Of a stretch of DNA of 64,000 nucleotides, positions 3,657-44,206 are shown piece by piece (the first letter of the stretch is position 1; each line of letters opens with the position of its first letter). Below the pieces are notes generated by a model. That model had not been told where the DNA came from, did no database searches, and saw only the letters and a list, made by a program, of their open reading frames with translations. This DNA comes from an uncultured Bacilli bacterium (GTDB taxonomy: Bacteria > Bacillota_I > Bacilli_A > RF39 > UBA660). The stretch lies in assembly GCA_934096265.1 (NCBI GenBank), contig CAKOLI010000001.1:141512-205511 (forward strand), read 5' to 3'. The position numbers and the translations under genes were made by a program.

Positions 3657-6600
3657 ATGAAAGATGTAAGAAAGAAAAAGTTGACTTTAATAATAAGTAT
3701 AATTACAATAATCATTCTAGCTTTATCTGGTACTTATGCTCTATTTAAATGGAACTCTGATAACACAGATATTACCCTAGATGCCCATCTAGGCATCATT
3801 TATAAAAAAGAACACGATACCCTAACAGGAACATTAAATCCCGCTAATTCTAAAGATGAAGGATTATCTACCAACATAGAATTATGGACCACAACTACCA
3901 GAACTAAAGTATATGGAACCTTATTTTTTACAGTAAAAAGCATAGATTCCCCATTAAACCAAAATAGCATGCTAAAATGGGAACTTTGGAATAATGGAAA
4001 TAAATTAAATGAAGGAGATTTTAATGGCTTTGCAAATGGAGATATTGTAGAGTTATTAAAAGATACAGAACTATCTAACTCAAAAACAATATATACACTA
4101 TACGTATGGTTAGACGATAGCCGTATCACTTCAACTGACATAAGTGGTTCTACTATGGAAGTAGACGTTGGAGCTTCTGCAGTCCAAGTACCTACTAGTG
4201 AAAGCACTATTACTGTAGTAGATAATTCACCAGCTCAAACTACTTGGGTTAAAGATTACACATTATCCCTAAAAGCAACATCTACAGAATATAACATAAC
4301 AGGATATGCTGTAACGACATCTCCGGAAAAACCATCATCATACACTTCAGTAAGCACTCCAGGACTAACATATAACTTAAACTATACAGTAGATACTAAT
4401 GATAAATACTTCGTTTGGTTTAGAAATCAAAACAACAAAGTAGCTTATGCTACAGTAGACGTAAATAAAATAGATAATACTAAACCAGAAATAGATTTAA
4501 ATGGCACTTCTTCACCTAGTATTGCATCATCTAGTGCAACTATAAGCATTCCATTAAAAATAACCGATACCCAAAGTGGTATTAATACAAGCACATTTAC
4601 CTCTAATAGCTTAACTGTTAAAGTAGGAACAACTACTGTTAATCCAACCAAGACCATTACTTATCAAAAAGTAGAAAGTGGTATATACTCATACATACTT
4701 ACTCTAACTAACGTTACTGGTAATGGCAATATATCTTTAAACATACCTGCTTCCGCGATAAGCGATGTCGTTGGTAACACCAATAATAATAAAGATTTAA
4801 TTCCAAATATTGATATAGATAATACAGCTCCAGTAGTAAATAGCATAACAGCAGAACAATATACAAGCACTATTACAATTAGTGCTAACGCTACTGATAG
4901 CTATGGAACAATAGATACATATTGGTATAGCATAGATGGAGTAAACTACTATAGTTCTAATAATTCAAATTATACATTTACAAACGTATCATCTGGTAAC
5001 TATACAGCCTATGTATACGTCAAAGATAAAGCGGGCAATAAATCAAATACATATGAAAAAACAGTATTATTTGATAACATCCCACCTACATTAACATCTC
5101 TATTAGTAACTACCACATCTGGTACGTATGCAAATGGCAAAGCTATAGATATAACTGCAACTTACAGTGAAGATATAGTAAGTAGTACAGGTGCTACCAT
5201 AACATCAACTACTGCTCCAAAACTATCTCTAAAATTTGGTTCACAAACCGCAAGAGAAGCAACATTTAAAAGTGCTAGCTCAAACAAAATAAATTATCAA
5301 ATAGTAATAAATACTACTGACCTAGGATCATTAAGCTTATCTTCATATCAAGGAACAGTATATGATGCTGCAAATAACAGCCTAACATTATCAAACGTAA
5401 GCCTAGGAGGAAATGCGATTCAGGCATCTACTAAAGCAAAAATAGATACAACTTATTATACAACCCTAGCTTCTGCAATAAATACATCAAGTACTACAAA
5501 AACTATAACAATGGTAAATGATACAACCGAATGTGTAACAATACCAAGTAGTAATAATATAACTCTTGATTTATCAGGCAAAACAGTAACATGTACAACA
5601 TCTAACACTCCTCTAATAACTAACAATGGAACATTAACTATAAAATCTGGAACAACAGGGGGAACATTAAATAGTACTTACTATGCTATAGAAAATAAAG
5701 GTAGCCTAACACTTACAAGTGGTACAATCAAATCAACTAACAGCATCGCTGTAAATAATAACTCTACCGCTACAAATGCAAAAGGTGCATCATTATACGT
5801 AAATGGAGCAGAGGTAATCTCAACTAGTAATATAGGTATAAATAACGCGACAACAGGTATTATAACTATAGCATCTGGTACAGTAAAAGGTACCCAAAGT
5901 GGTATATACAATGTATCGACAGGAACAATAAATATAGGCTTATCAAGTGATACTTTAAGTACAACATCTCCTGCAATATATAACACAACAACATCTTCAT
6001 ATGGAGTATATATGAATAACGGAGGAACCCTAAATATTAATAATGGAGCTATCTACACTGCAAATACAAGCGTTGGAACAGCTTACTATAAAGGAACTTC
6101 AACCCTAACAGCAAGAAGTGGTTACCATGTTACAACATCAACTGAATCAGTATCTGGTGTAAGCAATAAAAAATCTTACCTAATAAGTGGAACAACACAA
6201 ATCCAATATCAATACAGGAATTATGACTCTTGTATAAAAAAAGAATGTGTAGGAGGAAATGTAACTAATTCTTCATGTGGATACGCAAGTTGTGTTAATA
6301 GTAATTGTTCTTGTGCTAAATGGAATTACACTACAACATGTGGATCATGGGTAGAAGGTACCTGTGAAAAATCTGGATATAATTTTGATACTACTGCGGA
6401 ATGTAATAGGCAAGGCACAAGTTGCACCGCATATACATCGTGTTCTGCTGGTGGTCAAGCTGGTAGCGGATATTATTGTTGCGATTACACTAGAACATGT
6501 ACCAAAAAGAAAACAAGTTGTAACACATATAATTCATGTCAAGATAGTTCATGTGGATACGCAACATGTTATGACTCCTGTGCAAATCTAGAATGTGTGG

Positions 6601-6728
6601 GAGGCTATACTGCTTGGACAAATTGGTCAACGAGCACTTTGTCTGGATACTCAAATTGTCAAAAGAGAACATGTAATCTAAACCCTGAAGGTGTAGTCAC
6701 TACATGTGGCACTGCTGGAAGTTGTTAG
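3657..6728 (+). CDS. giant exported modular protein: TasA/camelysin-like N-domain, Ig-like modules, beta-helix-like repeats, Cys-rich tail
   Basis: ATG 3657 follows AGGAGG (3644-3649). The N-terminus is KKK + TM + LSGTYALFKWNSD, resembling SipW-dependent signals. The N-domain ends YTLYVWLD..VDVGASAVQ. DNT(K/A)P-type Ig linkers and YVYVKDKAGN are present. GTL/GTI-x-I repeats span about aa 620-830. There are 24 Cys in the last 165 aa. Confidence 0.85.
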   Translation: MKDVRKKKLTLIISIITIIILALSGTYALFKWNSDNTDITLDAHLGIIYKKEHDTLTGTLNPANSKDEGLSTNIELWTTTTRTKVYGTLFFTVKSIDSPLNQNSMLKWELWNNGNKLNEGDFNGFANGDIVELLKDTELSNSKTIYTLYVWLDDSRITSTDISGSTMEVDVGASAVQVPTSESTITVVDNSPAQTTWVKDYTLSLKATSTEYNITGYAVTTSPEKPSSYTSVSTPGLTYNLNYTVDTNDKYFVWFRNQNNKVAYATVDVNKIDNTKPEIDLNGTSSPSIASSSATISIPLKITDTQSGINTSTFTSNSLTVKVGTTTVNPTKTITYQKVESGIYSYILTLTNVTGNGNISLNIPASAISDVVGNTNNNKDLIPNIDIDNTAPVVNSITAEQYTSTITISANATDSYGTIDTYWYSIDGVNYYSSNNSNYTFTNVSSGNYTAYVYVKDKAGNKSNTYEKTVLFDNIPPTLTSLLVTTTSGTYANGKAIDITATYSEDIVSSTGATITSTTAPKLSLKFGSQTAREATFKSASSNKINYQIVINTTDLGSLSLSSYQGTVYDAANNSLTLSNVSLGGNAIQASTKAKIDTTYYTTLASAINTSSTTKTITMVNDTTECVTIPSSNNITLDLSGKTVTCTTSNTPLITNNGTLTIKSGTTGGTLNSTYYAIENKGSLTLTSGTIKSTNSIAVNNNSTATNAKGASLYVNGAEVISTSNIGINNATTGIITIASGTVKGTQSGIYNVSTGTINIGLSSDTLSTTSPAIYNTTTSSYGVYMNNGGTLNINNGAIYTANTSVGTAYYKGTSTLTARSGYHVTTSTESVSGVSNKKSYLISGTTQIQYQYRNYDSCIKKECVGGNVTNSSCGYASCVNSNCSCAKWNYTTTCGSWVEGTCEKSGYNFDTTAECNRQGTSCTAYTSCSAGGQAGSGYYCCDYTRTCTKKKTSCNTYNSCQDSSCGYATCYDSCANLECVGGYTAWTNWSTSTLSGYSNCQKRTCNLNPEGVVTTCGTAGSC

Positions 6729-24568: not shown

Positions 24569-27241
24569 ATGAAAAAGAAAAAGAATACTTTAGCCAATAT
24601 CCTTTTAGTCTTAGCAGTAACAGTAGCACAATTTGTACCTAGCATACAAGTTTTCGCGGACGCTCTTACTGAAGAAGTAGGACTAACAGTAAGTATTAAA
24701 AATGAAGAAGATACTTATGTAAGTATATATGATAATTATACTGTTAATTACACTGGAACTGATATATACAAATACGATATTATGGTTAAAACTAATAATT
24801 ATACACTAGATGGTAATAATTATTTACTAGCTTTAGAAAATGATATTTATACTATCAACTATAATAAAAAAATATTAAGTAACAACGAAAGATATGTACT
24901 TTCTAAAGCATCAAACGACTATGTTATGGATAACATAAGTCTAACTGCTCTTAAATTTAATGGCAAAATGACTTTAAAATTAAAATTATATGAAATAGAT
25001 GACATATATGATGATATTAACAATGGAATAACAGACATATATGACGTTGACTTAACTAATAAAGAAGCTATATTAACTAAAGAAATTAGTATCATAAGCA
25101 CAGGTTATACTAATAAAATTAATATAAATTCAGTAAAATATCAAACAGATAATATCTTAGTAGATCAAAACGAAAACATATACACTATAGATGCTACTAA
25201 ATTAGCTACCAATGATATAGAACTTAACTTTATGCCTCTACTACAAAATGCTGATTTAGAAGAACCATACTATGTATATTACACCATTAATGGCTTATTT
25301 ATAGGATTAGATACAGTTAATTATAATGGTAACCAAAAAGTCCTATCAGACCTATCAAATCTTATAAATGGAGAATACAAATTAGATATTAACATAGTAG
25401 ATAAACTAAACAATGAAATTACATCTACATCACTTGACTTTAGCTTAGCAAATAGTAATAAAGTCCTAACCAAAGAAGACTTTAAAGAAGAAAATATTAA
25501 CCTATCAACATTACTAAGCTATAATAACCTATCAGATAGTGACAAAGAATCTTTATCACTTGATGATAAAGACTTAGAAAATATAGATAATCTAACTAAT
25601 TATTATAGTACAGATTATTATATAGATGAAAATATTAGTAGTACACTATCTAGTGCTAACTATTATATAGATAGTTTCTATAAAATAAAAGAAAATACTA
25701 CTAAAGTATTTATTGTAAATGGAACATTAAACCACATAGGCGCTAATGACAATCGTATCAATCTAAATATCTTAAACAATCTATTTACATCTTCAAATAA
25801 CAATGTAATAGTATTAGCATATGATGAAAATGGTGACAAATTAGATAATGATACATATCTTAAAACCAATATGACATTAGAGTTTTATGTAAATGGCCTA
25901 AAGAATACTTACAAAGTAGCCCTACTAGGTAATTTATCTAGTAAAGATGGTTATGTTAATCATGATGATATAATTAATATAATTGATATTGCTATTAATA
26001 GTAGTAAGCTTGGTGATATTTATAAACTAGTAAGTGATATTAATCATGATGGTAATACTAACATCTTAGATACTACTAATCTTATGAATTTACTTAAAAA
26101 TGGAGGCATTCCATTTACTAGCACAGAAAATCCAATTGTAAGTAATATAAAAGCAATTTTAAATCCAGATAAAACAGAAGTTAGAGTAGGAGATACTTTC
26201 GAACTTAGCCTTATTGTTAAAAACTTCAAAAATAACAAAATATCTGGCCTAGAAGGTATTATTAATTATGATAAAACATTAATAGAATGTACAAGTATAT
26301 TAAACATAAATGACTGGTATGGAAATATAAATGTAATTAATAATGACTCATATGGTAAATTCTTAACATCAGGTTATACTACCTTAGATAAAGATACTAC
26401 AGTACTAACATATACATTCAAAGCCTTAAAAGAAGGCGATGCTAAAGTATATATAGATAATCTAAAATCTGCATTAAATGGCATAGAAGTAACTCTAAAA
26501 GATACTAAAACAAACACCGTATCAGTAAAAATTAATAGAGCATTATATTCAAACAACAATATCAGTAGCATTAAATTCAGTACTGGTAAATTAAACCATC
26601 CATTTGATAAAGAAGTATTAAAATATACACTATATGTTGATTATCGTACAACAAGTATTAATATAAGTGGACTACTTGAAAATGAATTTGCCACTACTAC
26701 CGCTTTTAAAGAATACGACCTAACAGGTTATAGAACTACTATAACTATCCCTGTTACTGCCGAAGATGGCACAGTAAAAACTTATGTAATAGATGTAATT
26801 AAAGTAGATAACAGAAGCAGTAATAATTATCTAAAAGATTTAAAAATAGATGGTGCTAACATTGAATTTGATAAGAAAAATACTGAATATAGCATTATTG
26901 TAGAAAACCATATAACAGAATTATCAATATTAGCAACTGCTGAAGATGCTAAATCAGAAGTAACAATTACTGGTAACAAAGGCCTAAAAGTAGGAGATAA
27001 TACTATTGAAGTAAAAGTACAAGCCGAAAATGGCAGTACTAGAGTATACAAAATCAATGTTACTAGAAAAGATAAAGAAAAAGTAGTAGAAGAAGTAAAT
27101 AATAAAAATTCAAAATTAGTTCTAATAATTCTTATTGTTGCCACTTTAGCGGCATTAATATACCTAATATTTAAAGACAACAAAAAAGAAGAAAATAAAG
27201 AATTTAAATTAAAAGATAGACCATACAATAAAAAGCAATAG
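24569..27241 (+). CDS. membrane-anchored surface protein with dockerin-like, cohesin-like and two cadherin-like beta-sandwich modules
   Basis: Sec signal (..VFA|DA). Dockerin-like segments are SKDGYVNHDDIINIID and DINHDGNTNILDTTNLMNLL (about 25936-26100). A cohesin-like block runs VRVGDTFELSLIVKN..GIINYD..YTFKALKEGDAKVYI (about 26146-26500). There are two L..L...G...F....Y.. cadherin-like units and a C-terminal TM. Confidence 0.7.
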   Translation: MKKKKNTLANILLVLAVTVAQFVPSIQVFADALTEEVGLTVSIKNEEDTYVSIYDNYTVNYTGTDIYKYDIMVKTNNYTLDGNNYLLALENDIYTINYNKKILSNNERYVLSKASNDYVMDNISLTALKFNGKMTLKLKLYEIDDIYDDINNGITDIYDVDLTNKEAILTKEISIISTGYTNKININSVKYQTDNILVDQNENIYTIDATKLATNDIELNFMPLLQNADLEEPYYVYYTINGLFIGLDTVNYNGNQKVLSDLSNLINGEYKLDINIVDKLNNEITSTSLDFSLANSNKVLTKEDFKEENINLSTLLSYNNLSDSDKESLSLDDKDLENIDNLTNYYSTDYYIDENISSTLSSANYYIDSFYKIKENTTKVFIVNGTLNHIGANDNRINLNILNNLFTSSNNNVIVLAYDENGDKLDNDTYLKTNMTLEFYVNGLKNTYKVALLGNLSSKDGYVNHDDIINIIDIAINSSKLGDIYKLVSDINHDGNTNILDTTNLMNLLKNGGIPFTSTENPIVSNIKAILNPDKTEVRVGDTFELSLIVKNFKNNKISGLEGIINYDKTLIECTSILNINDWYGNINVINNDSYGKFLTSGYTTLDKDTTVLTYTFKALKEGDAKVYIDNLKSALNGIEVTLKDTKTNTVSVKINRALYSNNNISSIKFSTGKLNHPFDKEVLKYTLYVDYRTTSINISGLLENEFATTTAFKEYDLTGYRTTITIPVTAEDGTVKTYVIDVIKVDNRSSNNYLKDLKIDGANIEFDKKNTEYSIIVENHITELSILATAEDAKSEVTITGNKGLKVGDNTIEVKVQAENGSTRVYKINVTRKDKEKVVEEVNNKNSKLVLIILIVATLAALIYLIFKDNKKEENKEFKLKDRPYNKKQ

Positions 27242-33666: not shown

Positions 33667-33671
33667 AATCA

Positions 33672-33700
33672 TTGTCAATAACTAGAACTTATGATATAAT
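33672..33700 (+). promoter_or_regulatory. promoter of LRR paralogue 1
   Basis: TTGTCA at 33672-33677, a 17-nt spacer, and extended -10 TGaTATAAT at 33692-33700. Confidence 0.6.
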
Positions 33701-33739
33701 TTTATACATAAGATATCTAAAAGTGATAGTGGTGTATAT

Positions 33740-33796
33740 AAATCTATTACTTTAAATAATAGTTATTAAAACTATACTTTTAGTAATAGATTTTTT
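33740..33796 (+). terminator. terminator-like hairpin + T-run inside the 5' leader of LRR paralogue 1
   Basis: Stem aaatctattact (33740-33751) / agtaatagattt (33782-33793), with an inner stem atagtt/aactat, followed by TTTTTT. Confidence 0.6.
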
Positions 33797-33839
33797 ATTT
33801 ACGTCTTTATCTTCATCATAAAAAGGGAGTGTGTTATAC

Positions 33840-34409
33840 ATGGATAACAACAAAAAAGTATATCTAGTAATAGCCATAATATCCATAATAATGTTAGCAA
33901 TGGGAGTAACTACTGCGTGGTTTACTTGGAGAAGTAGTATTAATACAGATGTAACATTTAATGTAGAAGGCTTAGATATTACCTATACAGGAGATGCTAA
34001 TATTCTAAATAAAAAGCTATATCCTACAGCCTCAATGACTAATACTGATAATATAATACATAATTTTAGTCTAGTAACAACATCAAATATAGATATATAT
34101 ACTAAAATATCACTAGATATAATTAAGTTAGATGATAATTTAAAAGATGTATCATTTAGATGGGATTTATATAAAGAAAACACATCTATTGCAAGTGGAG
34201 ATATCAGCAGTGCTACAGTAGGTAGTGACTTACTACTTACTCCATATGAAAAAATAACTACAACTCCAACTAATTACACATTATATATCTGGATAGATGG
34301 AGAACACTACAATAACCCCCTTGCCATGGGAGGTAAAGAGTTTTACTTCAAATTAAAACTAGACGCAGGCCAACAAGACTATACAACACAAAGTGATTGT
34401 TTTACATTT
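33840..34409 (+). repeat. direct repeat copy A (5' 570 nt shared with 42722-43291)
   Basis: Collinear codon-for-codon with copy B. 33911-34032 is identical to 42793-42914 (122 nt). I count about a dozen mismatches over 33900-34200. Confidence 0.85.
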
Positions 34410-35345
34410 GATGAAACTACAGGTACTATAACAGGTTACTTATGCACAAAAGGAAATAGCAATAACCTACCTGAACTAACAGAAATAGTAATACCAAGAA
34501 CCATAAATAACAAGGAAGTAACAATACTAAAATCATCAATCTTTCGTAATAAAGGTCTTACAAAAGTAGTCTTACCAACTACCTTAAAAACAATTGAAGA
34601 TGGATGCTTTGCCATAAATAATCTAAAAGAAATAATAATACCAGATGGTGTTACCAAAATAGGAGGTACCAGTTTCTGGGGAAACTCCTTAGAAAAAGTA
34701 AGTATTCCATCAACCGTCCTATCAATCGGAGGACAAGCCTTTAATAAGAATAACCTACCAGAAGAATATGCTTATATATATGCTAGAAAAGATGAAAACA
34801 AAGATGGTATTGCTGAGATAGATTATACCCAAATAGTAAGTTATGGGGGAACAAACACAAATATAGTAATACCAAATACTGTAAAAACTATTGGCACACA
34901 AGCTTTCTATAGCACTAACATAAATACCATAACCATACCAGAAGGTGTTACTAACTTAGGATATGCTTCCCTTGCAAATAATAACCTGACAAGTATAACT
35001 TTACCAGAAAGCATAACCAACATAGATACCTTAGCTCTTGCCAACAACAAATTAACTACCGTAACTATTCCTAAAAATGTAAAAGCAATAGGAACACTTG
35101 CTTTTGAAGGAAACATTTTAACATCAATATATTTATCCAAAGATATAAGCAAAGACCTAAGAATAAACACAAAATCATTCATTGTAAATGCCACTAATAA
35201 TCCAAATCTACAAGTAATATATAACCTTGCTAACTTATCCCTAGATTGGAACTTAGCTATAACTGGTACATATGGCACCGCTTTCGTAAGTGGCACAGTA
35301 ACAACCTCTGATGGAAGAACAATAACTATAACTACCAGTGAGTAA
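33840..35345 (+). CDS. surface protein: TasA/camelysin-like N-domain + BspA-type leucine-rich repeats (paralogue 1)
   Basis: TM plus MGVTTAWFTWRSS (SipW-type-like). The N-domain ends YTLYIWIDG..FKLKLDAGQQ. LRR units follow the pattern IP..V..IG..AF....L. Conserved tail GTAFVSGTVTTSDGRTITITTSE. Confidence 0.8.
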   Translation: MDNNKKVYLVIAIISIIMLAMGVTTAWFTWRSSINTDVTFNVEGLDITYTGDANILNKKLYPTASMTNTDNIIHNFSLVTTSNIDIYTKISLDIIKLDDNLKDVSFRWDLYKENTSIASGDISSATVGSDLLLTPYEKITTTPTNYTLYIWIDGEHYNNPLAMGGKEFYFKLKLDAGQQDYTTQSDCFTFDETTGTITGYLCTKGNSNNLPELTEIVIPRTINNKEVTILKSSIFRNKGLTKVVLPTTLKTIEDGCFAINNLKEIIIPDGVTKIGGTSFWGNSLEKVSIPSTVLSIGGQAFNKNNLPEEYAYIYARKDENKDGIAEIDYTQIVSYGGTNTNIVIPNTVKTIGTQAFYSTNINTITIPEGVTNLGYASLANNNLTSITLPESITNIDTLALANNKLTTVTIPKNVKAIGTLAFEGNILTSIYLSKDISKDLRINTKSFIVNATNNPNLQVIYNLANLSLDWNLAITGTYGTAFVSGTVTTSDGRTITITTSE

Positions 35346-35369
35346 AGAGAGCTAAAAAAGCTCTTTTTT
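35344..35369 (+). terminator. intrinsic terminator after LRR paralogue 1
   Basis: Stem aaagagagc / gctcttttt with a 7-nt A loop and a T-run. Confidence 0.65.
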
Positions 35370-35424
35370 ATACTAGCAATATTTATAAAAATAATATATA
35401 CTAATACATAAGAGGTGACCAACT

Positions 35425-36510
35425 ATGAGAAGTGTATATATTCATATTCCCTTTTGCAGCAACATATGTAGCTACTGTGATTTTGCTAAAGTATATTATA
35501 ATAACAATATAGTAGAAAAATACTTAAAATCATTATCAAACGAAGTATCTAAAAGATATAAAAATAATCTAATAAACACTCTCTATATAGGAGGAGGAAC
35601 ACCCAGTAGTCTTAGTATAGAAAACTTATCTGTTTTATTTAAAATAATAAACAAACTAAACCTAACCAAAGACTGTGAAATAACATTTGAATGTAACATA
35701 GATGATACTACCTATGATAAATTACTATTCTTATATAATAATAATGTAAATAGATTAAGCTTTGGAATACAATCTTTTAATCCTAAATTACTAAAAATAC
35801 TAAATAGAACTCACACTAAAGAAGATATATATAGAGTAATTAACATGGCAAAAGAAATAGGATTTAAAAATATCAATGTAGATTTAATTTATGGTATTAA
35901 CAAAGAAACAATAAATGATGTAAAAGAAGAACTAGATAACTTCTTATCTTTAAATATAAATCATATATCTACCTATGCTCTAATAATAGAACCAAACACC
36001 ATACTAAGTAATAATAACTATAAAAATATAAATGAAGATACAGAATATAAAATGTATAAATATATAAATAAAACCCTTACTAAAAATAACTATACTAACT
36101 ATGAATTTGCTAACTATGCTAAAGATAATACTTATTCTAAACATAACCTAGTATATTGGAATAACCTAGAATACTATGGCTTTGGCCTAGGAGCAGTATC
36201 ATATTTAAATAAAAGAAGAATAACTAATACTAGAAACTTAACTACATATTTAAAAAATAAATATATATATACTAATATATATGAAGATAAAAATACTACT
36301 ATGAGTAACGAAATGATTCTAGGACTAAGAAAAATACAAGGAGTAAATGAAGATGAATTTTATAAAAAATATAATCTAAAAATTGAAGATGTATTTGATA
36401 TAAATAAACTCCTTCAAGATAGATTATTAATTAAAGAAAAAGGATATTTAAAAATAAATAAAGATTATCTCTATCTATCAAATGAAATTCTTGTTAATTT
36501 TATCATCTAA
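35425..36510 (+). CDS. hemW: radical SAM heme chaperone HemW (HemN-like)
   Basis: HIPFCSNICSYCDF is a CxxxCxxC motif, followed by GGGTPS. Confidence 0.88.
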   Translation: MRSVYIHIPFCSNICSYCDFAKVYYNNNIVEKYLKSLSNEVSKRYKNNLINTLYIGGGTPSSLSIENLSVLFKIINKLNLTKDCEITFECNIDDTTYDKLLFLYNNNVNRLSFGIQSFNPKLLKILNRTHTKEDIYRVINMAKEIGFKNINVDLIYGINKETINDVKEELDNFLSLNINHISTYALIIEPNTILSNNNYKNINEDTEYKMYKYINKTLTKNNYTNYEFANYAKDNTYSKHNLVYWNNLEYYGFGLGAVSYLNKRRITNTRNLTTYLKNKYIYTNIYEDKNTTMSNEMILGLRKIQGVNEDEFYKKYNLKIEDVFDINKLLQDRLLIKEKGYLKINKDYLYLSNEILVNFII

Positions 36511-36564
36511 CTATTTAAAAAAATATTAATTTGGTGTAAAATAATTATACAAGGAAGTGATACT

Positions 36565-37161
36565 ATGTTACAACATACCATGCATAACATAATAGATGCT
36601 ATATGGCCACTTATAATTATTGTAATCGTAGTACTTACATCCTTTAGAATAATGGACATATTAATTAATAAAAAGAATTTTATATTATATAAAGACTTAA
36701 TGACAGTACTATTTATAATATATATAATATCTCTATTCTATATAGTAACATTCCAAGATGTTAACTATGGTAGTTCTAACTTTGTTCCATTTAAAGAAAT
36801 AAATAGATACACATTCTTATCTAATCTATTTATCAAAAATGTAATGGGTAACGTCTTACTATTTATCCCCTTTGGCTTCTTTACCGCATACTTTTTAAAT
36901 ACCAAAAAAATATTTCCCCCAATAATACTAACAATAATTACTTCAATAACCATAGAAACAGTTCAACTAAAAATCGGTAGAGTATTTGATATAGATGATA
37001 TCATTTTAAATGTTCTAGGGGGCATCTTTGGATTTATACTATTCATACTTTTTAGCTATATTAAAAAAATAATTCCTAAATACCTAAAAAAAGAATGGTT
37101 AATAAATATTATATTAAGTCTTCTTATTATATTAACCCTATATATAATATTACATATATAA
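36565..37161 (+). CDS. VanZ-family membrane protein
   Basis: NVLLFIPFGFF and DIDDIILNVLGG motifs. Confidence 0.75.
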   Translation: MLQHTMHNIIDAIWPLIIIVIVVLTSFRIMDILINKKNFILYKDLMTVLFIIYIISLFYIVTFQDVNYGSSNFVPFKEINRYTFLSNLFIKNVMGNVLLFIPFGFFTAYFLNTKKIFPPIILTIITSITIETVQLKIGRVFDIDDIILNVLGGIFGFILFILFSYIKKIIPKYLKKEWLINIILSLLIILTLYIILHI

Positions 37162-37187
37162 AACTAGTCTATCATAGGAGGTATATC

Positions 37188-37625
37188 ATGTTTGAAATAG
37201 ACAATATAAGTAGTAAAGAAATAGATACTACTAAATTAAAAGAATTTATAAACTTTGTTGTAACTAAAGAAAACTTAGAAGAAGCAATATTTAATATTAT
37301 CTTTGTAGATAATGAAGAAATAAAGAAAATTAACAAAGAATATAGAAACATAGATGCATACACAGATGTAATTAGCTTTGCCCTAGAAGATAACGAAGAT
37401 AATTATGAATGTGCATATAGAGTACTAGGAGATATATATATATCTATAGATAAAGCTATAGAACAAGCTAATCTATATAACCACAGCCTAGAAAGAGAAA
37501 TATCTTTCTTAGCCATACATGGACTATTACATCTATTAGGATATGACCATATGGTAAAAACAGAAGAAGAAATAATGTTTAAAAAGCAAGAAGATTACTT
37601 AAATCTTTTTGGATTAAAGAGGTAA
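37188..37625 (+). CDS. ybeY: rRNA maturation endoribonuclease YbeY
   Basis: HGLLHLLGYDH zinc motif. ATG 37188 follows AGGAGG. Confidence 0.9.
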   Translation: MFEIDNISSKEIDTTKLKEFINFVVTKENLEEAIFNIIFVDNEEIKKINKEYRNIDAYTDVISFALEDNEDNYECAYRVLGDIYISIDKAIEQANLYNHSLEREISFLAIHGLLHLLGYDHMVKTEEEIMFKKQEDYLNLFGLKR

Positions 37626-37627
37626 TT

Positions 37628-38017
37628 ATGAAAGAAAAATTAATTAAATTATTAGACTTATCTTACAGTCCATACTCAAACTTTAAAGTAAGTAGCATAG
37701 CCATTATGAAAGATGGTAAAGAATTCACAGGAGTTAATATAGAAAACGCTTCATACTCCGCGACTATATGTGCAGAAAGAGTAGCCATATTTAAAGCAAT
37801 ATCAGAAGGTTATACTAAAAAAGATTTCCATAAACTATATGTAATGTCATCATCAAACAACATAACTCCTAGTTGCTTTATATGTAGACAAGTAATTACA
37901 GAGTTCTTTGATAGTGAAAGTGAAATAATATTTATAACACCTACAGGAAAAACAGCAACCTACAAAGTAAAAGATGTCTGCCCACTACCATTTAACTCAT
38001 CAAGTCTAGAAGGATAA
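37628..38017 (+). CDS. cdd: cytidine deaminase
   Basis: CAERVAIF and PCFICRQV zinc motifs. 129 aa. Confidence 0.9.
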   Translation: MKEKLIKLLDLSYSPYSNFKVSSIAIMKDGKEFTGVNIENASYSATICAERVAIFKAISEGYTKKDFHKLYVMSSSNNITPSCFICRQVITEFFDSESEIIFITPTGKTATYKVKDVCPLPFNSSSLEG

Positions 38018-38020
38018 ACA

Positions 38021-38383
38021 ATGCAAGTCAAAGAAGGTTATACCTTAAATATACTAAAAGATGAAGATGGCATTATAAGAGTAATTATAAATAGTATTAA
38101 TGATATCCTAGTATTAGAAGATACATTTGCATATATATTTCTAAGCGAATACAAATATATATTAAATTACATAGAAGCAAACTATAGTTTTAGACTAAAA
38201 CAAATAGATAACGACTACGAAGCTCTAATCTATAAAATAGAAGATAAAAAAGGTAAACTAAAACCAAGATATATAACTAAAACAAAACATAAAATTGTTG
38301 AGTACGTACTATATATGTTAAATACAAACTTAAAAGAAAGAGATAAGTTAAAACAAAACTTAACTCTAATAAAAAGGAAGTGA
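38021..38383 (+). CDS. hypothetical protein
   Basis: A 120-aa ORF tightly packed between cdd and era. No family recognised. Confidence 0.5.
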   Translation: MQVKEGYTLNILKDEDGIIRVIINSINDILVLEDTFAYIFLSEYKYILNYIEANYSFRLKQIDNDYEALIYKIEDKKGKLKPRYITKTKHKIVEYVLYMLNTNLKERDKLKQNLTLIKRK

Positions 38384-38387
38384 TATA

Positions 38388-39278
38388 ATGAAAAGTGGCT
38401 TTGTTGGCTTAATAGGTCGTCCTAACGTAGGCAAATCTACACTAATGAATAGCATCCTTGGTAAAAAGGTAGCTATTACCTCAAGCAAACCTCAAACTAC
38501 TAGAAATATTATTCAAGGAATATATAATGAAGAAGATACCCAAATAATCTTTGTAGACACTCCAGGTATTCATAAACCACAGTCTAAACTAGGTAAATTT
38601 CTAAATGAAGAAGCATTCTTCTCTATAAATGATGTAGATGTAATACTATTTGTAACAGATGTATCAGTTCCTCTAGGTAAAGGAGATCAATATATAATTA
38701 ATCTATTTAAAGAAATAACCACTCCTGTAATCTTAGTTCTAAATAAAATAGATAAACTACCTAAAGAAGAAATATTACTAAAAATAGATGAATACAAAGA
38801 TTTATATAACTTCACAGAAATAGTACCAATATCTTCTATAAAAAAAGATAACATCGATAGATTAATCGAAGTACTAAAAAAATATTTAAAAGATAACATT
38901 AGGTACTTTGATAAAAATACATATACATCTAGTCCTATAAACTTCATTATAAGTGAATTAATAAGAGAGAAAGTATTTAACTTAACAGAAGAAGAAATAC
39001 CTCACACCATAGCGACATACATAGAAAATATAGAAGACAAAAACAATGCCGTCACCATAAACGGTGTAATAGTAACAGATAGAGAAAACATAAAAAAAAT
39101 AATCATAGGCAAACAAGGCTCCATGATTAAAGAAATAGGCACACAAGCAAGAAAAGATATAGAATCATTACTAGGAAAAAAAGTATACTTAGAACTATTC
39201 GTAAAAGTAATACCTAAATGGAGAGATAAAGAAAGATATTTAAAAGAATTAGGATTTAGAAAGAGCGATTTTGAATAA
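38388..39278 (+). CDS. era: GTPase Era
   Basis: GRPNVGKST, DTPG, NKID, and a KH domain (IIGKQGSMIK). Confidence 0.95.
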   Translation: MKSGFVGLIGRPNVGKSTLMNSILGKKVAITSSKPQTTRNIIQGIYNEEDTQIIFVDTPGIHKPQSKLGKFLNEEAFFSINDVDVILFVTDVSVPLGKGDQYIINLFKEITTPVILVLNKIDKLPKEEILLKIDEYKDLYNFTEIVPISSIKKDNIDRLIEVLKKYLKDNIRYFDKNTYTSSPINFIISELIREKVFNLTEEEIPHTIATYIENIEDKNNAVTINGVIVTDRENIKKIIIGKQGSMIKEIGTQARKDIESLLGKKVYLELFVKVIPKWRDKERYLKELGFRKSDFE

Positions 39279-39316
39279 CTTTAAATAAAATGACCATAAT
39301 GATAATAGGTGATAAT

Positions 39317-39400
39317 ATGAATAAGAAAGATTTATGGAATTTATTTAAACAAACAGGCAAAATCGAATACTATCTTGATTATAAAAATAAAAGAAAGTAG
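39317..39400 (+). CDS. yqzL: YqzL-like small protein
   Basis: A 27-aa peptide, MNKKDLWNLFKQTGKIEYYLDYKNKRK. It sits between era and recO as in Bacillus. The W.(L/V)F..TG.I..YL motif is recalled from YqzL. Confidence 0.5.
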   Translation: MNKKDLWNLFKQTGKIEYYLDYKNKRK

Positions 39401-39407
39401 AGAAAAC

Positions 39408-40145
39408 ATGATTAGAAAAGTAGAAGGCATAGTTATAAAAGAAACAGACTATAAAGAAACAAGTAAAATAATAAATATCTTTACTAAAGAAGGTATCATT
39501 GGCATATTAGCAAAAGGGGCAAAAAGATTAAAAAGCCCCTTCGTAGGAGCTACTAGCAAACTAACATACGCCTATTTTCATATAAACTATAAAGAAAATA
39601 GCATGTCTACTTTAATAGAAGTAGATATCATAGATACATTAAAAAATTTAAAAAAAGATATAACCAAAATTAGTTATGCTTCCTTTATAACTGACCTTAC
39701 TTATCAAGTATATAAACACGAAAACAACAACTCTCTATACGAACTATATAAAAGCAGCATCATTAAAATTAATGAAGGCTACGACCCCCTTGTCATAACA
39801 AACATCCTAGAATTAAAATACTTAGACTATTTAGGAATAAGACCCATTATTTCTAAATGTGTCATATGTGGCAAAGATAAAAACATAATAACAATATCCA
39901 GTTATAAAGGTGGATACATATGTAAATCATGCCATACCAACGAAAAAATTATAAGCCTAAAAGCTCTAAAGCTAATTAAGATGTTTTATTACATAGACAT
40001 ATCTAAAATTACCAAAACAGATATAAGTGCTAATGTAAAAAAAGAAATCAATACTTTTATAGATGAATACTATGACAGATATGCAGGATTATACTTAAAA
40101 AGTAAAAGCTTTTTAAATAACCTATCTAAAGCTAACATTATCTAA
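39408..40145 (+). CDS. recO: DNA repair protein RecO
   Basis: An OB-fold N-terminus (EGIVIKETDYKETSKII) and a CxxC..CxxC zinc finger (CVICG..CKSCH). Confidence 0.88.
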   Translation: MIRKVEGIVIKETDYKETSKIINIFTKEGIIGILAKGAKRLKSPFVGATSKLTYAYFHINYKENSMSTLIEVDIIDTLKNLKKDITKISYASFITDLTYQVYKHENNNSLYELYKSSIIKINEGYDPLVITNILELKYLDYLGIRPIISKCVICGKDKNIITISSYKGGYICKSCHTNEKIISLKALKLIKMFYYIDISKITKTDISANVKKEINTFIDEYYDRYAGLYLKSKSFLNNLSKANII

Positions 40146-40494
40146 ATTCTAAAAGTATATTATACAACATATTGATATAGATATCATCATAAAATCTACA
40201 AGATTATTTTTAGAAGAAGCTAACTAGAAGTTATGAGTTAGTTTCTTTTTTATATCTTCTTAACCTACAAAAAAAGAAGAAATCAACTCAAGTTAATTCC
40301 TTCATTATACAATTAATCTAGCTAATTTTAAAAAATGTATTATACTAACAATTAATTAAAATCAACTAAAAAAATTATATATCATTTTTTATAAATATCA
40401 ACAAAAACTAAAAAATATAAATTTATCTATTTTACACATATCCTTTCTTTTTTCTTATAAATATTATATAATTGTAATAGAAAGAGGCGATATC

Positions 40495-41445
40495 ATGAAG
40501 AAAGTTGTTGTATTAGGAGGAGGAACTGGCCTATCAGTACTCCTAAAAGGACTAAAAGAGTTTCCCGTAGATATCACCGCGATTGTTACTGTATCAGATG
40601 ATGGCAGATCAACAGGCAGACTAAGAAGTGAATTCAATATCCCAGCAGTAGGGGACTTAAGAAATGTCTTAGCATCCCTATCCAAAGAAGAACCTCTAGT
40701 AGAAGAACTACTTCAATACCGCTTTCAAACAAGCAGTGACCTAAACAACCATGCCCTAGGAAACCTTCTTTTAACAGCTCTCTACAATATAACAGGCAAC
40801 CTAACCAAATCAATGGAATCCCTAGGCAGAATATTAAATATAAAAGGTAGAATATTACCTCTTACCGAAGACAAAGCTACCTTAATCGCACACACCAAAG
40901 ATAATGAAACCATAATAGGTGAATCTAACATCACCAAAGCGGGAAAAGTAATAACCAAACTAGAATACCAAAAAGAAATAAAAGTAACCAAAGAAGTAAA
41001 AAAAGCAATTAAAGAAGCAGACTTAATCATTTTTGGTATAGGTAGTCTATATACAAGCATTCTTCCTAATATCATAAATAGTGAAATAAGACAGTGCCTA
41101 ATAAACTCAAAAGGCAAAAAAATGTATATATGTAACGCAATGACTGAACACGGAGAAACAGACAACTTCAAAGTATCTGACTGTATCAAAACAATAAATA
41201 ACTACATAAAAGATAACTTCATAGAAGTAGTCATCGCTAACTCTAAAAAAATAGATAGCAAAATAAAAAAAATATACAAAGAAAAAGAATACAGTACCCC
41301 AATAGAAATAGATAGTGAAAACATAAAAAAACTAAACGTAGAACTTATTAGTGATGAATTAATAGTAATTAAAAATAACCAAGTAAGACATAACAGTCTA
41401 AAAACAGCCTTCCTAATATTTTCATACCTAATGAATGGAGAATAA
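40495..41445 (+). CDS. yvcK: YvcK/GlmR-family (CofD-like) protein
   Basis: VVVLGGGTGLSVLLKGLK and VSDDGRSTGRLR motifs. Confidence 0.9.
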   Translation: MKKVVVLGGGTGLSVLLKGLKEFPVDITAIVTVSDDGRSTGRLRSEFNIPAVGDLRNVLASLSKEEPLVEELLQYRFQTSSDLNNHALGNLLLTALYNITGNLTKSMESLGRILNIKGRILPLTEDKATLIAHTKDNETIIGESNITKAGKVITKLEYQKEIKVTKEVKKAIKEADLIIFGIGSLYTSILPNIINSEIRQCLINSKGKKMYICNAMTEHGETDNFKVSDCIKTINNYIKDNFIEVVIANSKKIDSKIKKIYKEKEYSTPIEIDSENIKKLNVELISDELIVIKNNQVRHNSLKTAFLIFSYLMNGE

Positions 41446-41447
41446 TT

Positions 41448-42377
41448 ATGAGTTTTTCAATGGATATAAAACAAGAAGTAACCAAACTAGATAGCACCAA
41501 AACTGAATATATAAGTGAACTTTCTGCAATAGTAAGAAATACATCTATAATTACCTCATCTAGCCTCGTAATCAACCTAGAAAACAACTCTGTAGCAAGA
41601 AGAATATATAAACTATTTAAAAACGTATATGGAGTAACACCCATAATCACAGTAAGAAAAAGATATAACTTTAATAAAAATCTAAACTACATACTAGAAA
41701 TAAAACACAAAGTAGATAAAATATTAAAAGACCTATCTATATTAGATGATCACTCTAAATATATGAATATACCTAAAAACTATATAATATCAGACGAAGA
41801 AGAAATTCGTGCCTACCTAAGAGGAGTCTTTATATCAGTAGGAAGTGTAAACGACCCTAAAACATCCAGATACCACTTAGAACTAAGCCTAGATAACTTA
41901 GAATATGCTAAATTTATAAATAACTTACTAAATAAACATTACCTAAATAGCAAAATATTAAAAAGAGAAAAATGTTACATGGTATATATAAAAGAAGCAG
42001 AAAAAATAAGTGACTTTCTAAGAATAATTAAAGCATATAATGCTGTGATGTACTATGAAGATATAAGAATTTATAGAGACCATAAAAACATGACAAATAG
42101 ATTAAATAACTGTGAACAAGCTAACATAGACAAAATCTTTATAACATCAAACAAACAAATAAAAGATATAAACATCATAAAAGAAAATGATATGTTAGAT
42201 TTACTAGATGATAAATTACTAGAAGCTATAAACTACAGATTAAAATATCCAGAAACCTCCCTACAAGAACTAAGCGAAATAATTACAATAGAAACAGGTA
42301 ATAAAATAACCAAATCAGGACTTAACCACCGCTTTAGAAAAATAAAAGATATAGCTACTAACATAAAACAAAACTAA
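41448..42377 (+). CDS. whiA: DNA-binding protein WhiA
   Basis: N-terminal MSFS..K.E. Degenerate LAGLIDADG halves (YLRGVFISVGS). C-terminal HTH (SGLNHRFRKI). Confidence 0.9.
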   Translation: MSFSMDIKQEVTKLDSTKTEYISELSAIVRNTSIITSSSLVINLENNSVARRIYKLFKNVYGVTPIITVRKRYNFNKNLNYILEIKHKVDKILKDLSILDDHSKYMNIPKNYIISDEEEIRAYLRGVFISVGSVNDPKTSRYHLELSLDNLEYAKFINNLLNKHYLNSKILKREKCYMVYIKEAEKISDFLRIIKAYNAVMYYEDIRIYRDHKNMTNRLNNCEQANIDKIFITSNKQIKDINIIKENDMLDLLDDKLLEAINYRLKYPETSLQELSEIITIETGNKITKSGLNHRFRKIKDIATNIKQN

Positions 42378-42402
42378 TTTACAAACATTTTAATAAAAAT
42401 AC

Positions 42403-42431
42403 TTGCAACTTATAACTACTTGTGTTATTAT
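42403..42431 (+). promoter_or_regulatory. promoter of LRR paralogue 2
   Basis: TTGCAA at 42403-42408, a 17-nt spacer, and extended -10 TGtTATTAT at 42423-42431. The transcript starts with the same tacataagata as paralogue 1. Confidence 0.55.
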
Positions 42432-42508
42432 TAGTACATAAGATAAGTGAGTTAAAAAATACCAAAAAATTCACAAATTTTAGATAAAAATTAATAAGAT
42501 TTTAGGAG

Positions 42509-42619
42509 TTGATAGTGATGAGCAAAGTTAACCAAAAGTGCCCTAAAACCCATATTTTACTAGGGGGGCAATTACAAAGCCTTATAAATAAAGGGCTTAA
42601 GCCTCATTTTAACTATCAA
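42509..42619 (+). other. inverted-repeat-bounded, G+C-enriched insert in the leader (candidate structured RNA / miniature element)
   Basis: TTGATAGT (42509-42516) pairs with ACTATCAA (42612-42619), and atgag (42518-42522) with ctcat (42603-42607). Inner hairpins are tgCCC..CCC..GGGGGGca (42539-42570) and aagcctt/aagggctt (42577-42598). The insert is absent from the paralogue-1 leader. Confidence 0.4.
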
Positions 42620-42640
42620 AAAAATCATAAAAAAATATAT

Positions 42641-42697
42641 AAATCTATATTAGAGATATAGCAGTTTTGCTATATTCTTTAATGTAGATTTTTTTTT
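42641..42697 (+). terminator. terminator-like hairpin + T-run immediately upstream of the RBS of LRR paralogue 2
   Basis: Outer stem aaatctatattagag / ctttaatgtagattt. Inner perfect stem atatagca/tgctatat. A T9 run ends about 14 nt before AGGAGG. Confidence 0.6.
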
Positions 42698-42721
42698 AAT
42701 ATTTAAATAGGAGGAATTATT

Positions 42722-43291
42722 ATGAATAATAACAAGAGAGTATATTTAATAATAGGGGTAATAACTATTACTATGCTAATAATGGGAGTAACCACTGCGT
42801 GGTTTACTTGGAGAAGTAGTATTAATACAGATGTAACATTTAATGTAGAAGGCTTAGATATTACCTATACAGGAGATGCTAATATTCTAAATAAAAAGCT
42901 ATATCCTACAGCCTCGATGACTAATACAGATAATGTAATACATAAATTTAGTCTAGTAACAACATCTAATATAGATATATATACTAAAATATCACTAGAT
43001 ATAATAAAACTAGATGATAACTTAAAAGATGTATCATTTAGATGGGATTTATATAAAGAAGATACATCTATTGCTAGTGGTAACTTTACCACTGCTACAG
43101 TAGGAAGTAATATGCTACTAACACCATATGAAATGATAACAACAACACCAACTAACTACACATTATATATCTGGATAGATGGAGAAAACTACAGTAACCC
43201 AATAGCCATGGGAGGCAAAGAATTTAACTTTAAACTAAAACTAGAAGCAGGGCAACAAGCATACGTAACACCTAGTACATGTTTTACGTAC
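42722..43291 (+). repeat. direct repeat copy B (matches 33840-34409)
   Basis: See copy A. The last 110 nt or so (44054-44164) also match 35235-35345. Confidence 0.85.
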
Positions 43292-44164
43292 TTGGATAAT
43301 TATGAATATACAATTAATGAAACTACATGTTTAAGTATTTATGGCAATTTATTCAATACATATTTAGGAAGCGATGCTGGAGAAATGATATGCAAAGGAA
43401 ACAAAGAAAAATATGGAGACCTTATAACCTTAACAAATGCCTACGGTGTTAGCAAAGACCAGTTAATTAGTCAAGGAGTAATAACAATAAGTGATGGAAA
43501 CAAAAATGGCAATGGTACTATAAGTATAGTGAATTATACTTGTGGTGGAACTGCAGACTCTACTTCAAAAGGAGAATACATGGATGTAGTAGTACCAGAA
43601 ACTATAGATAGTAAATCTGTTACTAGAATAGGTGCAATGTCTTTCGCAGGTTATGACTTAGAGGGAAATGCCAAGACGGGGACATTAATAAACTCTGTGC
43701 TAATACCTGACTCTGTTATCGCAATAGAAACAACTGCTTTTTGGAAAAATAACCTTGTTGATGCAACTATTTCAAATAATGTAAATTCAATAGGCAACTA
43801 CGCTTTTTATAACAATAAATTAACAAACGTAATTATTCCAAACAGTGTGACCATAATAGGAGATAATGCTTTTCAAAATAACAATTTAACAAATATAAGT
43901 ATTTCAGAAAATGTAACTTCAATAGGAGACTATGCCTTCGCTAACAACAATAGCCTAACAACTGTATATATAAACCAAAATTCCAAATTAAGCATAATAG
44001 GTAAGCAATCATTATACTCTGCTAGCTTAACTACAATATATAATCTAGGTAGTAAGTCATTAGATTGGAATTATGCTATAAATGGTTCATCAGGCACCGC
44101 TTTCGTAAGTGGTACAATAACTACTACTGATGGAAGAACAGTAACCATCACTACCAAAGAATAA
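42722..44164 (+). CDS. surface protein: TasA/camelysin-like N-domain + BspA-type leucine-rich repeats (paralogue 2)
   Basis: Same N-terminal 190 aa and C-terminal tail (GTAFVSGTITTTDGRTVTITTKE) as the 33840 gene. The central LRR cassette differs. Confidence 0.8.
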   Translation: MNNNKRVYLIIGVITITMLIMGVTTAWFTWRSSINTDVTFNVEGLDITYTGDANILNKKLYPTASMTNTDNVIHKFSLVTTSNIDIYTKISLDIIKLDDNLKDVSFRWDLYKEDTSIASGNFTTATVGSNMLLTPYEMITTTPTNYTLYIWIDGENYSNPIAMGGKEFNFKLKLEAGQQAYVTPSTCFTYLDNYEYTINETTCLSIYGNLFNTYLGSDAGEMICKGNKEKYGDLITLTNAYGVSKDQLISQGVITISDGNKNGNGTISIVNYTCGGTADSTSKGEYMDVVVPETIDSKSVTRIGAMSFAGYDLEGNAKTGTLINSVLIPDSVIAIETTAFWKNNLVDATISNNVNSIGNYAFYNNKLTNVIIPNSVTIIGDNAFQNNNLTNISISENVTSIGDYAFANNNSLTTVYINQNSKLSIIGKQSLYSASLTTIYNLGSKSLDWNYAINGSSGTAFVSGTITTTDGRTVTITTKE

Positions 44165-44171
44165 CATAAGA

Positions 44172-44206
44172 AAATAAGTAGTCACCCTTACTACTTATTT
44201 CTTTTT
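44172..44206. terminator. bidirectional terminator between convergent genes
   Basis: Perfect 10-bp stem aaataagtag (44172-44181) / ctacttattt (44191-44200), with A/T runs on both sides. Confidence 0.7.

Follow-up and report, generated by a model that had tools for sequence, protein, structure and literature searches.

The locus considered here raises the question of how two genes with closely similar beginnings and ends came to stand in the same orientation on either side of a block of housekeeping genes, and with which partners such genes exchange sequence. The window, i.e., the whole stretch of 64,000 nucleotides (nt) that was analyzed, corresponds to C1:141512-205511 in the assembly of an uncultured gut Bacilli bacterium, which has a reduced genome of ~1 Mb and a guanine plus cytosine (GC) content of 28%. 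The assembly comprises 861 kb in 15 contigs (C1, C5 and so on; 28% GC) and is 80% complete. The two genes, A1 and A2 (Table 1), encode proteins with leucine-rich repeats (LRR). The letter A denotes the LRR-type subfamily, the letter B denotes paralogues with another C-terminal part, and handles of the type Lnnn are used for contigs from strains or samples.

A1 and A2 belong to a multigene family of secreted or surface proteins whose members are dispersed over the genome. The explanation regarded here as likely, based on comparison of sequences, combines three elements: copies of the family exchange short tracts, the slot occupied by A2 is hypervariable, and a poly-G tract in the leader serves as an ON/OFF switch. 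The exchanges would represent RecA-dependent gene conversion between paralogues, possibly with some import of alleles between strains, and their net effect would be a variable repertoire of LRR adhesins.

Similarity between A1 and A2

The sequence-only reading, in which the pair was noticed, described the first 570 nt of both genes as collinear. The alignment bears this out, being gapless at an offset of 8882 with 496 of 570 positions identical (87%). The similarity begins precisely at the A1 start codon and does not extend beyond either stop codon. The 122-nt perfectly identical run reported within it exists, although its boundaries had been placed one base too early (position 33911 is a mismatch). 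This run exceeds chance expectation, since it contains 29 consecutive concordant polymorphic sites (nt 75-194 of the gene; p<0.0002, permutation test). The longest perfect run of A2 (133 nt) is located in its upstream leader and is shared with paralogue B4 on another contig, not with A1.

Conservation of the 3' ends had also been correctly noted: the last ~130 nt are 78% identical at an offset of 8819. Since synonymous divergence (dS) between these ends is high (0.87), their similarity reflects mostly protein-level constraint on the LRR cap, not recent exchange between the two genes. The central parts differ in length and sequence, as had been described, and neither has a close relative within the genome. 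Both proteins carry the Pfam domain LRR_5 (PF13306), with 131.7 bits in A1 and 101.7 bits in A2 at a gathering cut-off of 27.7. The AlphaFold2 model of A1 (mean predicted local distance difference test, pLDDT, 82) gave Foldseek matches to the LRR structures 4h09, 4fdw, 4fd0, 4gt6 and 4fs7 (E 7e-8 to 4e-6). These gut-bacterial structures, together with BspA of Tannerella forsythia, represent BspA-type LRR_5 proteins of the cell surface, which share the LRR_5 solenoid with the C-terminal halves of A1 and A2 and lack the N-terminal module of the family. To our knowledge, BspA-type LRR_5 proteins have not been described as recombining multigene families in bacteria.

The gene family

The earlier estimate of at least three genes sharing the N-terminal domain was far too low. 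A phmmer search of all open reading frames (ORFs), combined with a six-frame search, revealed 18-21 copies of the N-module in the genome, dispersed over at least five contigs. Each member is composed of a shared N-terminal helix and a ~155-aa (amino acid) beta-sandwich 'carrier', followed by a variable 'cargo', and most copies are preceded by a shared 340-nt leader. The cargo of subfamily A is formed by BspA-type LRR_5 repeats ending in a conserved cap, and that of subfamily B by another domain. The seven genes of subfamily A (A1-A7) encode 393-696 aa and share one C-terminal cap, and the six of subfamily B (B1-B6, ~600 aa each) combine the same signal region with a different C-terminal part. 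The module is also carried by one 197-aa stand-alone copy, three distant members and several fragments with stop codons. The giant protein at the beginning of the window, previously listed as sharing the N-domain, belongs to the distant members: it is indeed related, but only remotely (E 2e-13).

Degenerate A-type copies with stop codons were observed at C1:56251-57650, C1:109177-109817 and C10:19841-20026, and two of the three keep the leader cassette. These may be decaying copies or silent donors.

In public proteins, the N-module profile retrieved 3006 clusters at 50% identity (E<=1e-3). In these clusters the module is always N-terminal, being found alone (~175-200 aa, in many cases) or before 100-800 aa of other sequence. 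It is covered by no sequence model in Pfam, NCBIfam or PDB.

Mosaic structure of the paralogues

The nearest neighbor of each gene changes along its length. A1 is closest to A2 at nt 91-345 (96%) and to A3 and A4 at nt 346-560 (86-87% versus 81% to A2). Identity of the A2 signal region reaches 92-94% with A4, A5 and A6 and only 80% with A1. The tract common to A1 and A2 is matched by A5 at 98-100% in nt 61-120. The 3' ends of A1 and A2 have other nearest relatives, namely A6 for A1 (93%) and A3 and A5 for A2. In 60-nt windows, identity flips between 100% and less than 80%, with changing partners.

Statistical tests point in the same direction. In the alignment of A1-A6, 84 sites are parsimony-informative, and 1612 of the 3486 site pairs (46%) are incompatible. 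The pairwise homoplasy index (PHI) is significant at short range (p=0.0015), and concordant-run permutation tests are significant for 11 of 15 pairs at p<=0.013, the A1-A2 pair being the strongest (p<0.0002). Synonymous divergence amounts to 0.14-0.30 in the first part of the N-module, 0.36-0.71 in its second part and 0.4-1.2 in the C-terminal cap. Because it is low in the 5' part and high in the cap, the 3' similarity is attributed to selection on the protein, and the similarity of the 5' part (leader, signal region, N-module) is, as judged from the alignments, demonstrably a result of homogenization by repeated non-reciprocal exchange of ~40-280-nt tracts among many paralogues. The proposal that the family recombines through its conserved ends is thus supported by concordant evidence from mosaic nearest neighbors, site incompatibility and run tests.

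Variation of the two slots between strains

Contigs of further strains were found via look-ups of the flanking HemW, WhiA, MnmL and major facilitator superfamily (MFS) proteins and originate from independent gut metagenomes; whole-protein look-ups with WhiA and MnmL added few further strains. The flanks of these contigs are 99.1-99.6% identical to the window. Between strains, the flanks differ by 0.1-0.6%, A1 by 0.4-1.5% and A2 by 5-26%. The sequence-only reading would have been undermined by two static genes with uniform divergence; A2 is not static, divergence along it is not uniform, and the claim of recombination within the family survives the comparison.

A1 encodes 501 aa in all seven strain contigs, with 6-22 base differences, mostly synonymous. 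In one A1 haplotype (L011, L014-L017), the 22 differences are all confined to a 760-nt stretch (34268-35028) of the gene. Among them, three synonymous changes spanning 7 nt (34268, 34271, 34274) are also present in L013.

The A2 slot contains alleles of 480 aa (window, L023, L024; three samples), 482 aa (L011, L012; two samples) and 681 aa (L013; a single contig). Their differences are clustered at 42757-42793 (L011), 42696-42758 (L012, L013) and 43899-44085 (L011, L012). Within two of these clusters, the window carries runs identical to paralogues A5 and A3 (Table 1), and the first could be a recent conversion tract. In L011, the corresponding tract is the 'type II' variant of the signal region, as in A1, A3 and A7. 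The L012 allele is a mosaic that resembles L013 at its 5' end, the window in its middle and L011 in a 3' tract. In L013, the 681-aa allele has replaced the segment 42696-44134, from just past the leader terminator to 30 nt before the stop codon, and only background single-nucleotide polymorphisms are found outside it. Since these breakpoints lie inside the conserved 5' and 3' ends, the exchange uses the ends of the family as homology arms. Logan contigs from other samples were observed to end within the last ~110-130 nt of A2 or ~50 nt past the A1 stop codon.

The variation of the A2 slot could alternatively be derived mainly from the uptake and recombination of DNA of other strains or species. 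This possibility is considered doubtful as the principal source, although it survives better than the other alternatives. It would account for the tracts of L011, L012 and L013 and for the 681-aa allele, none of which has a donor in this genome, for the resemblance of L012 to a recombinant of allele types, and for the presence of family members in different slots in different lineages. Against it, the breakpoints fall within sequence common to the family, namely the leader terminator and the final 30 nt of the gene, while the unique flanks remain at background divergence. In addition, paralogues A5 and A3 of this genome match the window-specific tracts perfectly, and mosaicism within the genome is significant. 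The genome being 80% complete, the donors may simply be missing from it. Because they are not in this genome, import from other strains is inseparable from intragenomic conversion for the tracts in question.

The leader cassette and a putative poly-G switch

The leader of A2 (Table 1) is repeated before nearly all A- and B-type paralogues and is absent before A1. Its poly-G core is present in at least 14 leader copies of the genome, and its hairpin is conserved in nine distinct copies. No Rfam family matched the leader. The sequence of A2 combines a repeat inside a leader ORF preceded by a ribosome-binding site (RBS), a terminator before the gene and a repeat length that varies between strains.

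Strains differ in tract length at the A2 locus, with six Gs (G6) in the window and L022, ten (G10) in L011-L013 and twelve (G12) in L023. The other leader copies are mostly G10, two are G9, and three contigs end exactly at the tract. With G6, G9 or G12, the stop codon of the mini-ORF (TAG) falls in the 5' arm of the hairpin, and only these lengths reach the hairpin. With G10, the mini-ORF stops after 25 codons, well upstream of the hairpin, and with G11 an early stop is likewise read from the sequence. Slippage of the poly-G tract would set the frame of the mini-ORF, and only in the 6/9/12 frame would the ribosome run into the terminator hairpin, so that transcription continues into A2. The outcome would be a stochastic ON/OFF switch of the type known for pil1 of Streptococcus gallolyticus. 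A2 is thus probably switched on and off by its leader poly-G tract.

Several observations concern the leader itself. L011-L013 lack 12 nt of the leader ORF relative to the window (42618-42629), the frame being kept. The 173-nt upstream region of A1, beyond its promoter-like site, has no copy elsewhere in the genome. Its interpretation as a deleted family leader was rejected save for the promoter-like motif, the global alignment score being 58 compared with 52 +/- 6 for shuffled sequences.

In sample ERZ27286926 (L024/L027), one contig joins the body of A2 to the upstream flank and G9 leader of B4. A second contig of the same sample (L022) carries whiA and an A2-type G6 leader, followed by the start of a B1/B6-type gene, where the contig ends. 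In both, the changeover lies in the 133 bases that are identical between the leaders (42563-42695 in the window), and the joins could represent a mis-join or a real leader-mediated rearrangement. The A2-B4 contig was rejected as proof of rearrangement, since it is indistinguishable from a mis-join across 133 identical bases. Contigs of the genome also end at or inside poly-G leaders (C8:41185, C10:28902, C11:10181, C9:2-252 and C15:1-231). The family is a main cause of assembly breaks in this organism.

Table 1. Positions of the features discussed, in window coordinates.
Feature	Position	Strand	Description
Giant protein	3657..6728	+	Distantly related N-module copy, ~30% identity; outside the recombining set
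A1 promoter-like site	33672..33700	+	TTGTCA, 17 nt, TATAAT; resembles the family promoter motif (read from sequence)
A1 5'-region hairpin, then T-run	33740..33799	+	12-bp outer stem; whole region z = -1.9; no small ORF, no poly-G
Gene A1	33840..35345	+	501 aa; N-terminal hydrophobic helix, ~155-aa beta-sandwich N-module, BspA-type LRR solenoid, C-terminal cap
122-nt run	33912..34033	+	Identical to 42794-42915; within a ~120-280-nt high-identity tract common to A1, A2 and partly A5
Housekeeping block	35425..42377	+	hemW, vanZ-like, ybeY, cdd, unknown 120-aa gene, era, recO, yvcK, whiA (NCBIfam)
A2 family leader cassette	42378..42721	+	344 nt
A2 leader promoter-like site	42403..42431	+	TTGCAA-17-TATTAT
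Leader mini-ORF	42518..42661	+	47 codons; RBS AGGAG 42504-42508; stop TAG 42659-42661 in the hairpin 5' arm
Poly-G tract	42563..42568	+	Inside the mini-ORF; G6 in the window
Terminator-like hairpin	42643..42697	+	~22-bp stem (42643-42689), then T9; -25 kcal/mol, z = -6.6
Gene A2	42722..44164	+	480 aa; same N-module, different center, LRR_5, C-terminal cap; slot hypervariable between strains
47-nt run	42746..42792	+	Identical to paralogue A5; coincides with the tract 42757-42793 differing from L011; candidate recent conversion tract
49-nt run	44033..44081	+	Identical to paralogue A3; inside the tract 43899-44085 differing from L011 and L012

Another probable surface protein is encoded elsewhere in the window, at 24569-27241. 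It comprises 890 aa with Cohesin and Cadherin-like Pfam matches and is located upstream of the murG-murB-divIB-uppS-cdsA-rseP block.

Origin of the slots and the geometry of the pair

In a sister species of the same genus (L043; contig C9 of genome G002), the order rseP-hemW...whiA-mnmL-MFS is intact and both slots are empty, the spacing being 98 nt between rseP and hemW and 28 nt between whiA and mnmL. The sister contig was compared with window positions 33667-35424 and 42378-44190, and no target-site duplication was evident at the A1 or the A2 slot. Because both sites are empty in a species with intact gene order, A1 and A2, the latter together with its leader, are, on this comparison, separate lineage-specific insertions. 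The closest non-identical relative of A1 (P0005; L048, sample ERZ28594856) encodes 500 aa with 87% identity in the N-module and is located between tsf and tkt (transketolase). Its candidacy as an A1 allele was rejected owing to this different slot. Family members occupy different intergenic slots in different lineages.

These data bear on the original description of A1 and A2 as a direct repeat with a spacing of 8.9 kb, exchanging mainly with each other, in which the essential genes in between would channel the outcomes to conversion or amplification. The gene content given for the intervening block was correct, with a VanZ-like protein and an unknown 120-aa protein to be added. The two genes do share the 122-nt perfect run, the most significant run of concordant sites of any pair, and the same orientation, with Era, YbeY and other housekeeping genes between them. 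A privileged exchange within the pair is nevertheless improbable. A5 carries the same tract in nt 61-120, beyond nt 61-300 A1 and A2 are each nearer to other paralogues, and the divergence of the 3' ends is that of the cap (dS 0.87). A1 is static in seven strains, and no variant tract of A2 has A1 as its best match. Neither deletion, duplication nor a chimera of A1 and A2 was seen in the three contigs spanning both genes, which are recent insertions at unrelated sites. The framing as a pair is therefore abandoned: the two genes stand among ~20 scattered copies, and in most segments other paralogues match them as well or better. Their arrangement as direct repeats flanking the era/ybeY block is incidental. 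The argument that losing this block by deletion would be lethal is a reasonable inference, and the data can be explained without it.

The similarity of the ends could also arise with no recombination at all, if recent duplicates kept their ends by purifying selection (signal region and N-module, cap) and their middles diverged rapidly. The structural constraint on the N-module and cap, the high dS and low non-synonymous divergence (dN) of the cap and the mostly synonymous differences between A1 alleles agree with this. It is very improbable as a full account, being opposed by the 46% of incompatible site pairs, by the significant PHI and run tests, by tracts with synonymous divergence of 0.14-0.17 adjoining tracts at 0.5-0.7, by perfect runs of 122-133 nt that include the non-coding leader and by clustered strain differences that match paralogues.

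Least credible is an assembly artefact, in which the joining of co-occurring strains into chimeras, or the collapse of repeats, would have produced the mosaics and the differences between alleles. Contigs do break in the leader, at the poly-G tract and in the 3' cap, and one fuses the A2 body to the flank of another paralogue over the 133-nt identical stretch. Against this, the 501-aa A1 is found in seven independent assemblies, the 480-aa and 482-aa A2 alleles recur in three and two samples (the 681-aa allele is from a single contig), and the contigs bearing these alleles are long (up to 204 kb) and have consistent flanks.

Points weighing against exchange and switching

The reading that the family exchanges tracts and is switched by its leader faces several difficulties. 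All sequences are metagenome assemblies, in which repeats like these are prone to mis-joining, and conversion and switching are deduced from comparing assembled sequences. The donors of the variant tracts of L011, L012 and L013 were not found in this 80%-complete genome, the best matches reaching 77-84%. RecA (TIGR02012) was not found in the assembly either. In favor of exchange, RecO is encoded in the window, and MutS is present in the genome. Since RecA is present in all 12 relatives searched, its lack is read as incompleteness of the assembly, not as true absence.

As to the switch, in several copies the terminator is followed by a second promoter-like insert, which could bypass the switch. 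In L012 and L013, the A2 locus has an insert of ~32 nt past the terminator (at window position 42703) with a TATAAT-like motif, and a version of ~65 nt occurs in other paralogues; such an insert may act as a second promoter. Attenuation by a leader peptide needs coupling of transcription and translation, which is weak in some Firmicutes. Finally, the occurrence of many copies at exactly G10 may partly reflect limits of sequencing or assembly.

Relation to known systems

The babA, babB and babC genes of Helicobacter pylori (Hop family) have conserved 5' and 3' ends, divergent middles and separate loci. Gene conversion between these loci leads to chimeric alleles and strain-specific occupancy of loci, and a repeat at the 5' end of one copy provides a phase switch. 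The family described here is similar in its conserved ends, separate loci, conversion pattern and probable 5' repeat switch. It differs in having ~20 copies instead of two or three loci and in the position of its repeat, a poly-G tract in a separate leader ORF in place of a CT repeat in the coding region. Moreover, Bab proteins are Gram-negative outer-membrane proteins without LRR.

The opa genes of Neisseria occupy about a dozen dispersed loci, each independently phase-variable by a repeat, and their mosaic alleles arise from recombination between loci and between strains. The CTCTT repeat of opa is located in the region coding for the signal peptide and acts at translation, whereas the tract considered here is part of a separate mini-ORF that precedes a terminator. 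The proteins of the two families show no relationship. The features of opa- and bab-type families found in the present case include dispersed paralogues with shared ends, a signature of recombination and strain tracts that match paralogues.

For the leader, the closest parallel is found in the pil1 and pil3 loci of S. gallolyticus, where a repeat is located in a leader-peptide ORF and a stem-loop terminator precedes the structural genes (Danne et al. 2014, PMC3894217). In pil1, longer leader peptides bring the ribosome into the terminator, destabilize it and raise transcription, which has been proven experimentally (PMC3894217). The A2 leader possesses all three of the corresponding sequence features. 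It differs from pil1 in its G homopolymer, which takes the place of GCAGA, in the copy number of the cassette (at least 14 per genome) and in the exchange of this cassette along with the 5' coding end.

The mechanisms are accordingly already known, as recombining families of the opa/bab kind and a leader switch of the pil1 kind. The novelty lies in the family, in its carrier module and in a multi-copy leader cassette that is exchanged along with the 5' coding end.

Possible nature of the N-module

The N-terminal motif G-V-T-T-A-W-F-T (G-x-T-T-A-W-F-T), located after the helix, resembles SipW-type signals, by motif only. Two sequences on contig C5 exceed the cut-off of the archaeal-type signal peptidase I model (TIGR02228), and a third on the same contig matches it weakly. 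Among PDB folds, the N-module is matched best by the archaeal bundling pilin AbpA (7ueg_A), with E 3.5e-4 but a template modeling (TM) score of 0.37; jelly-rolls of CBM35, BclA and BcsB are close behind, and 7pnb is also among the structure matches. Profiles of TasA/camelysin fibre subunits and of their signal peptide gave the following results. The model of SipW-dependent-type signal peptides (TIGR04088) did not match A1 or A2, and the 197-aa stand-alone copy reached E 2.2 (8.5 bits versus a cut-off of 19). PF12389 (Peptidase_M73) matched none of 11 N-modules at E<=10 and nothing elsewhere in the genome; one remote relative gave E 0.16, with the match confined to the signal region.

TasA of Bacillus subtilis and AbpA are SipW-processed fibre subunits assembled by donor-strand exchange. 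The family resembles them in signal motif, peptidases and stand-alone relatives of ~180 aa, and differs in lacking a Peptidase_M73 or TIGR04088 sequence match. The fold match to AbpA, although the best, is weak and nearly equaled by generic jelly-roll domains. Tentatively, the N-module might be a TasA/AbpA-like subunit that is cut by SipW-type peptidases and polymerizes by donor-strand exchange, and the ~20 paralogues interchangeable fibre subunits. This idea is less likely than not and is offered as a lead, not a finding. If it is true, each subunit would display a different cargo (LRR or lectin-like) and would be switched independently by its own poly-G leader. Conversion through the shared leader and N-module would then re-assort subunits, giving an opa-like contingency repertoire on a fibre scaffold.

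Significance

Uncultured Bacilli with reduced genomes are common in human and animal guts, and the response of their surface to host and phage pressure is little understood. In the organism studied here, ~3-4% of a ~1-Mb genome is devoted to one adhesin-like protein family. Genes of this family break metagenome assemblies and vary between otherwise identical-looking strains, so that strain-tracking and pangenome analyses misjudge them. The N-module represents a large protein family without annotation and merits a structure. Both the expression and the sequence of the family seem suited to fast, stochastic change, since recombining paralogues are combined with a leader-ORF repeat switch, two mechanisms that have been described in pathogens.

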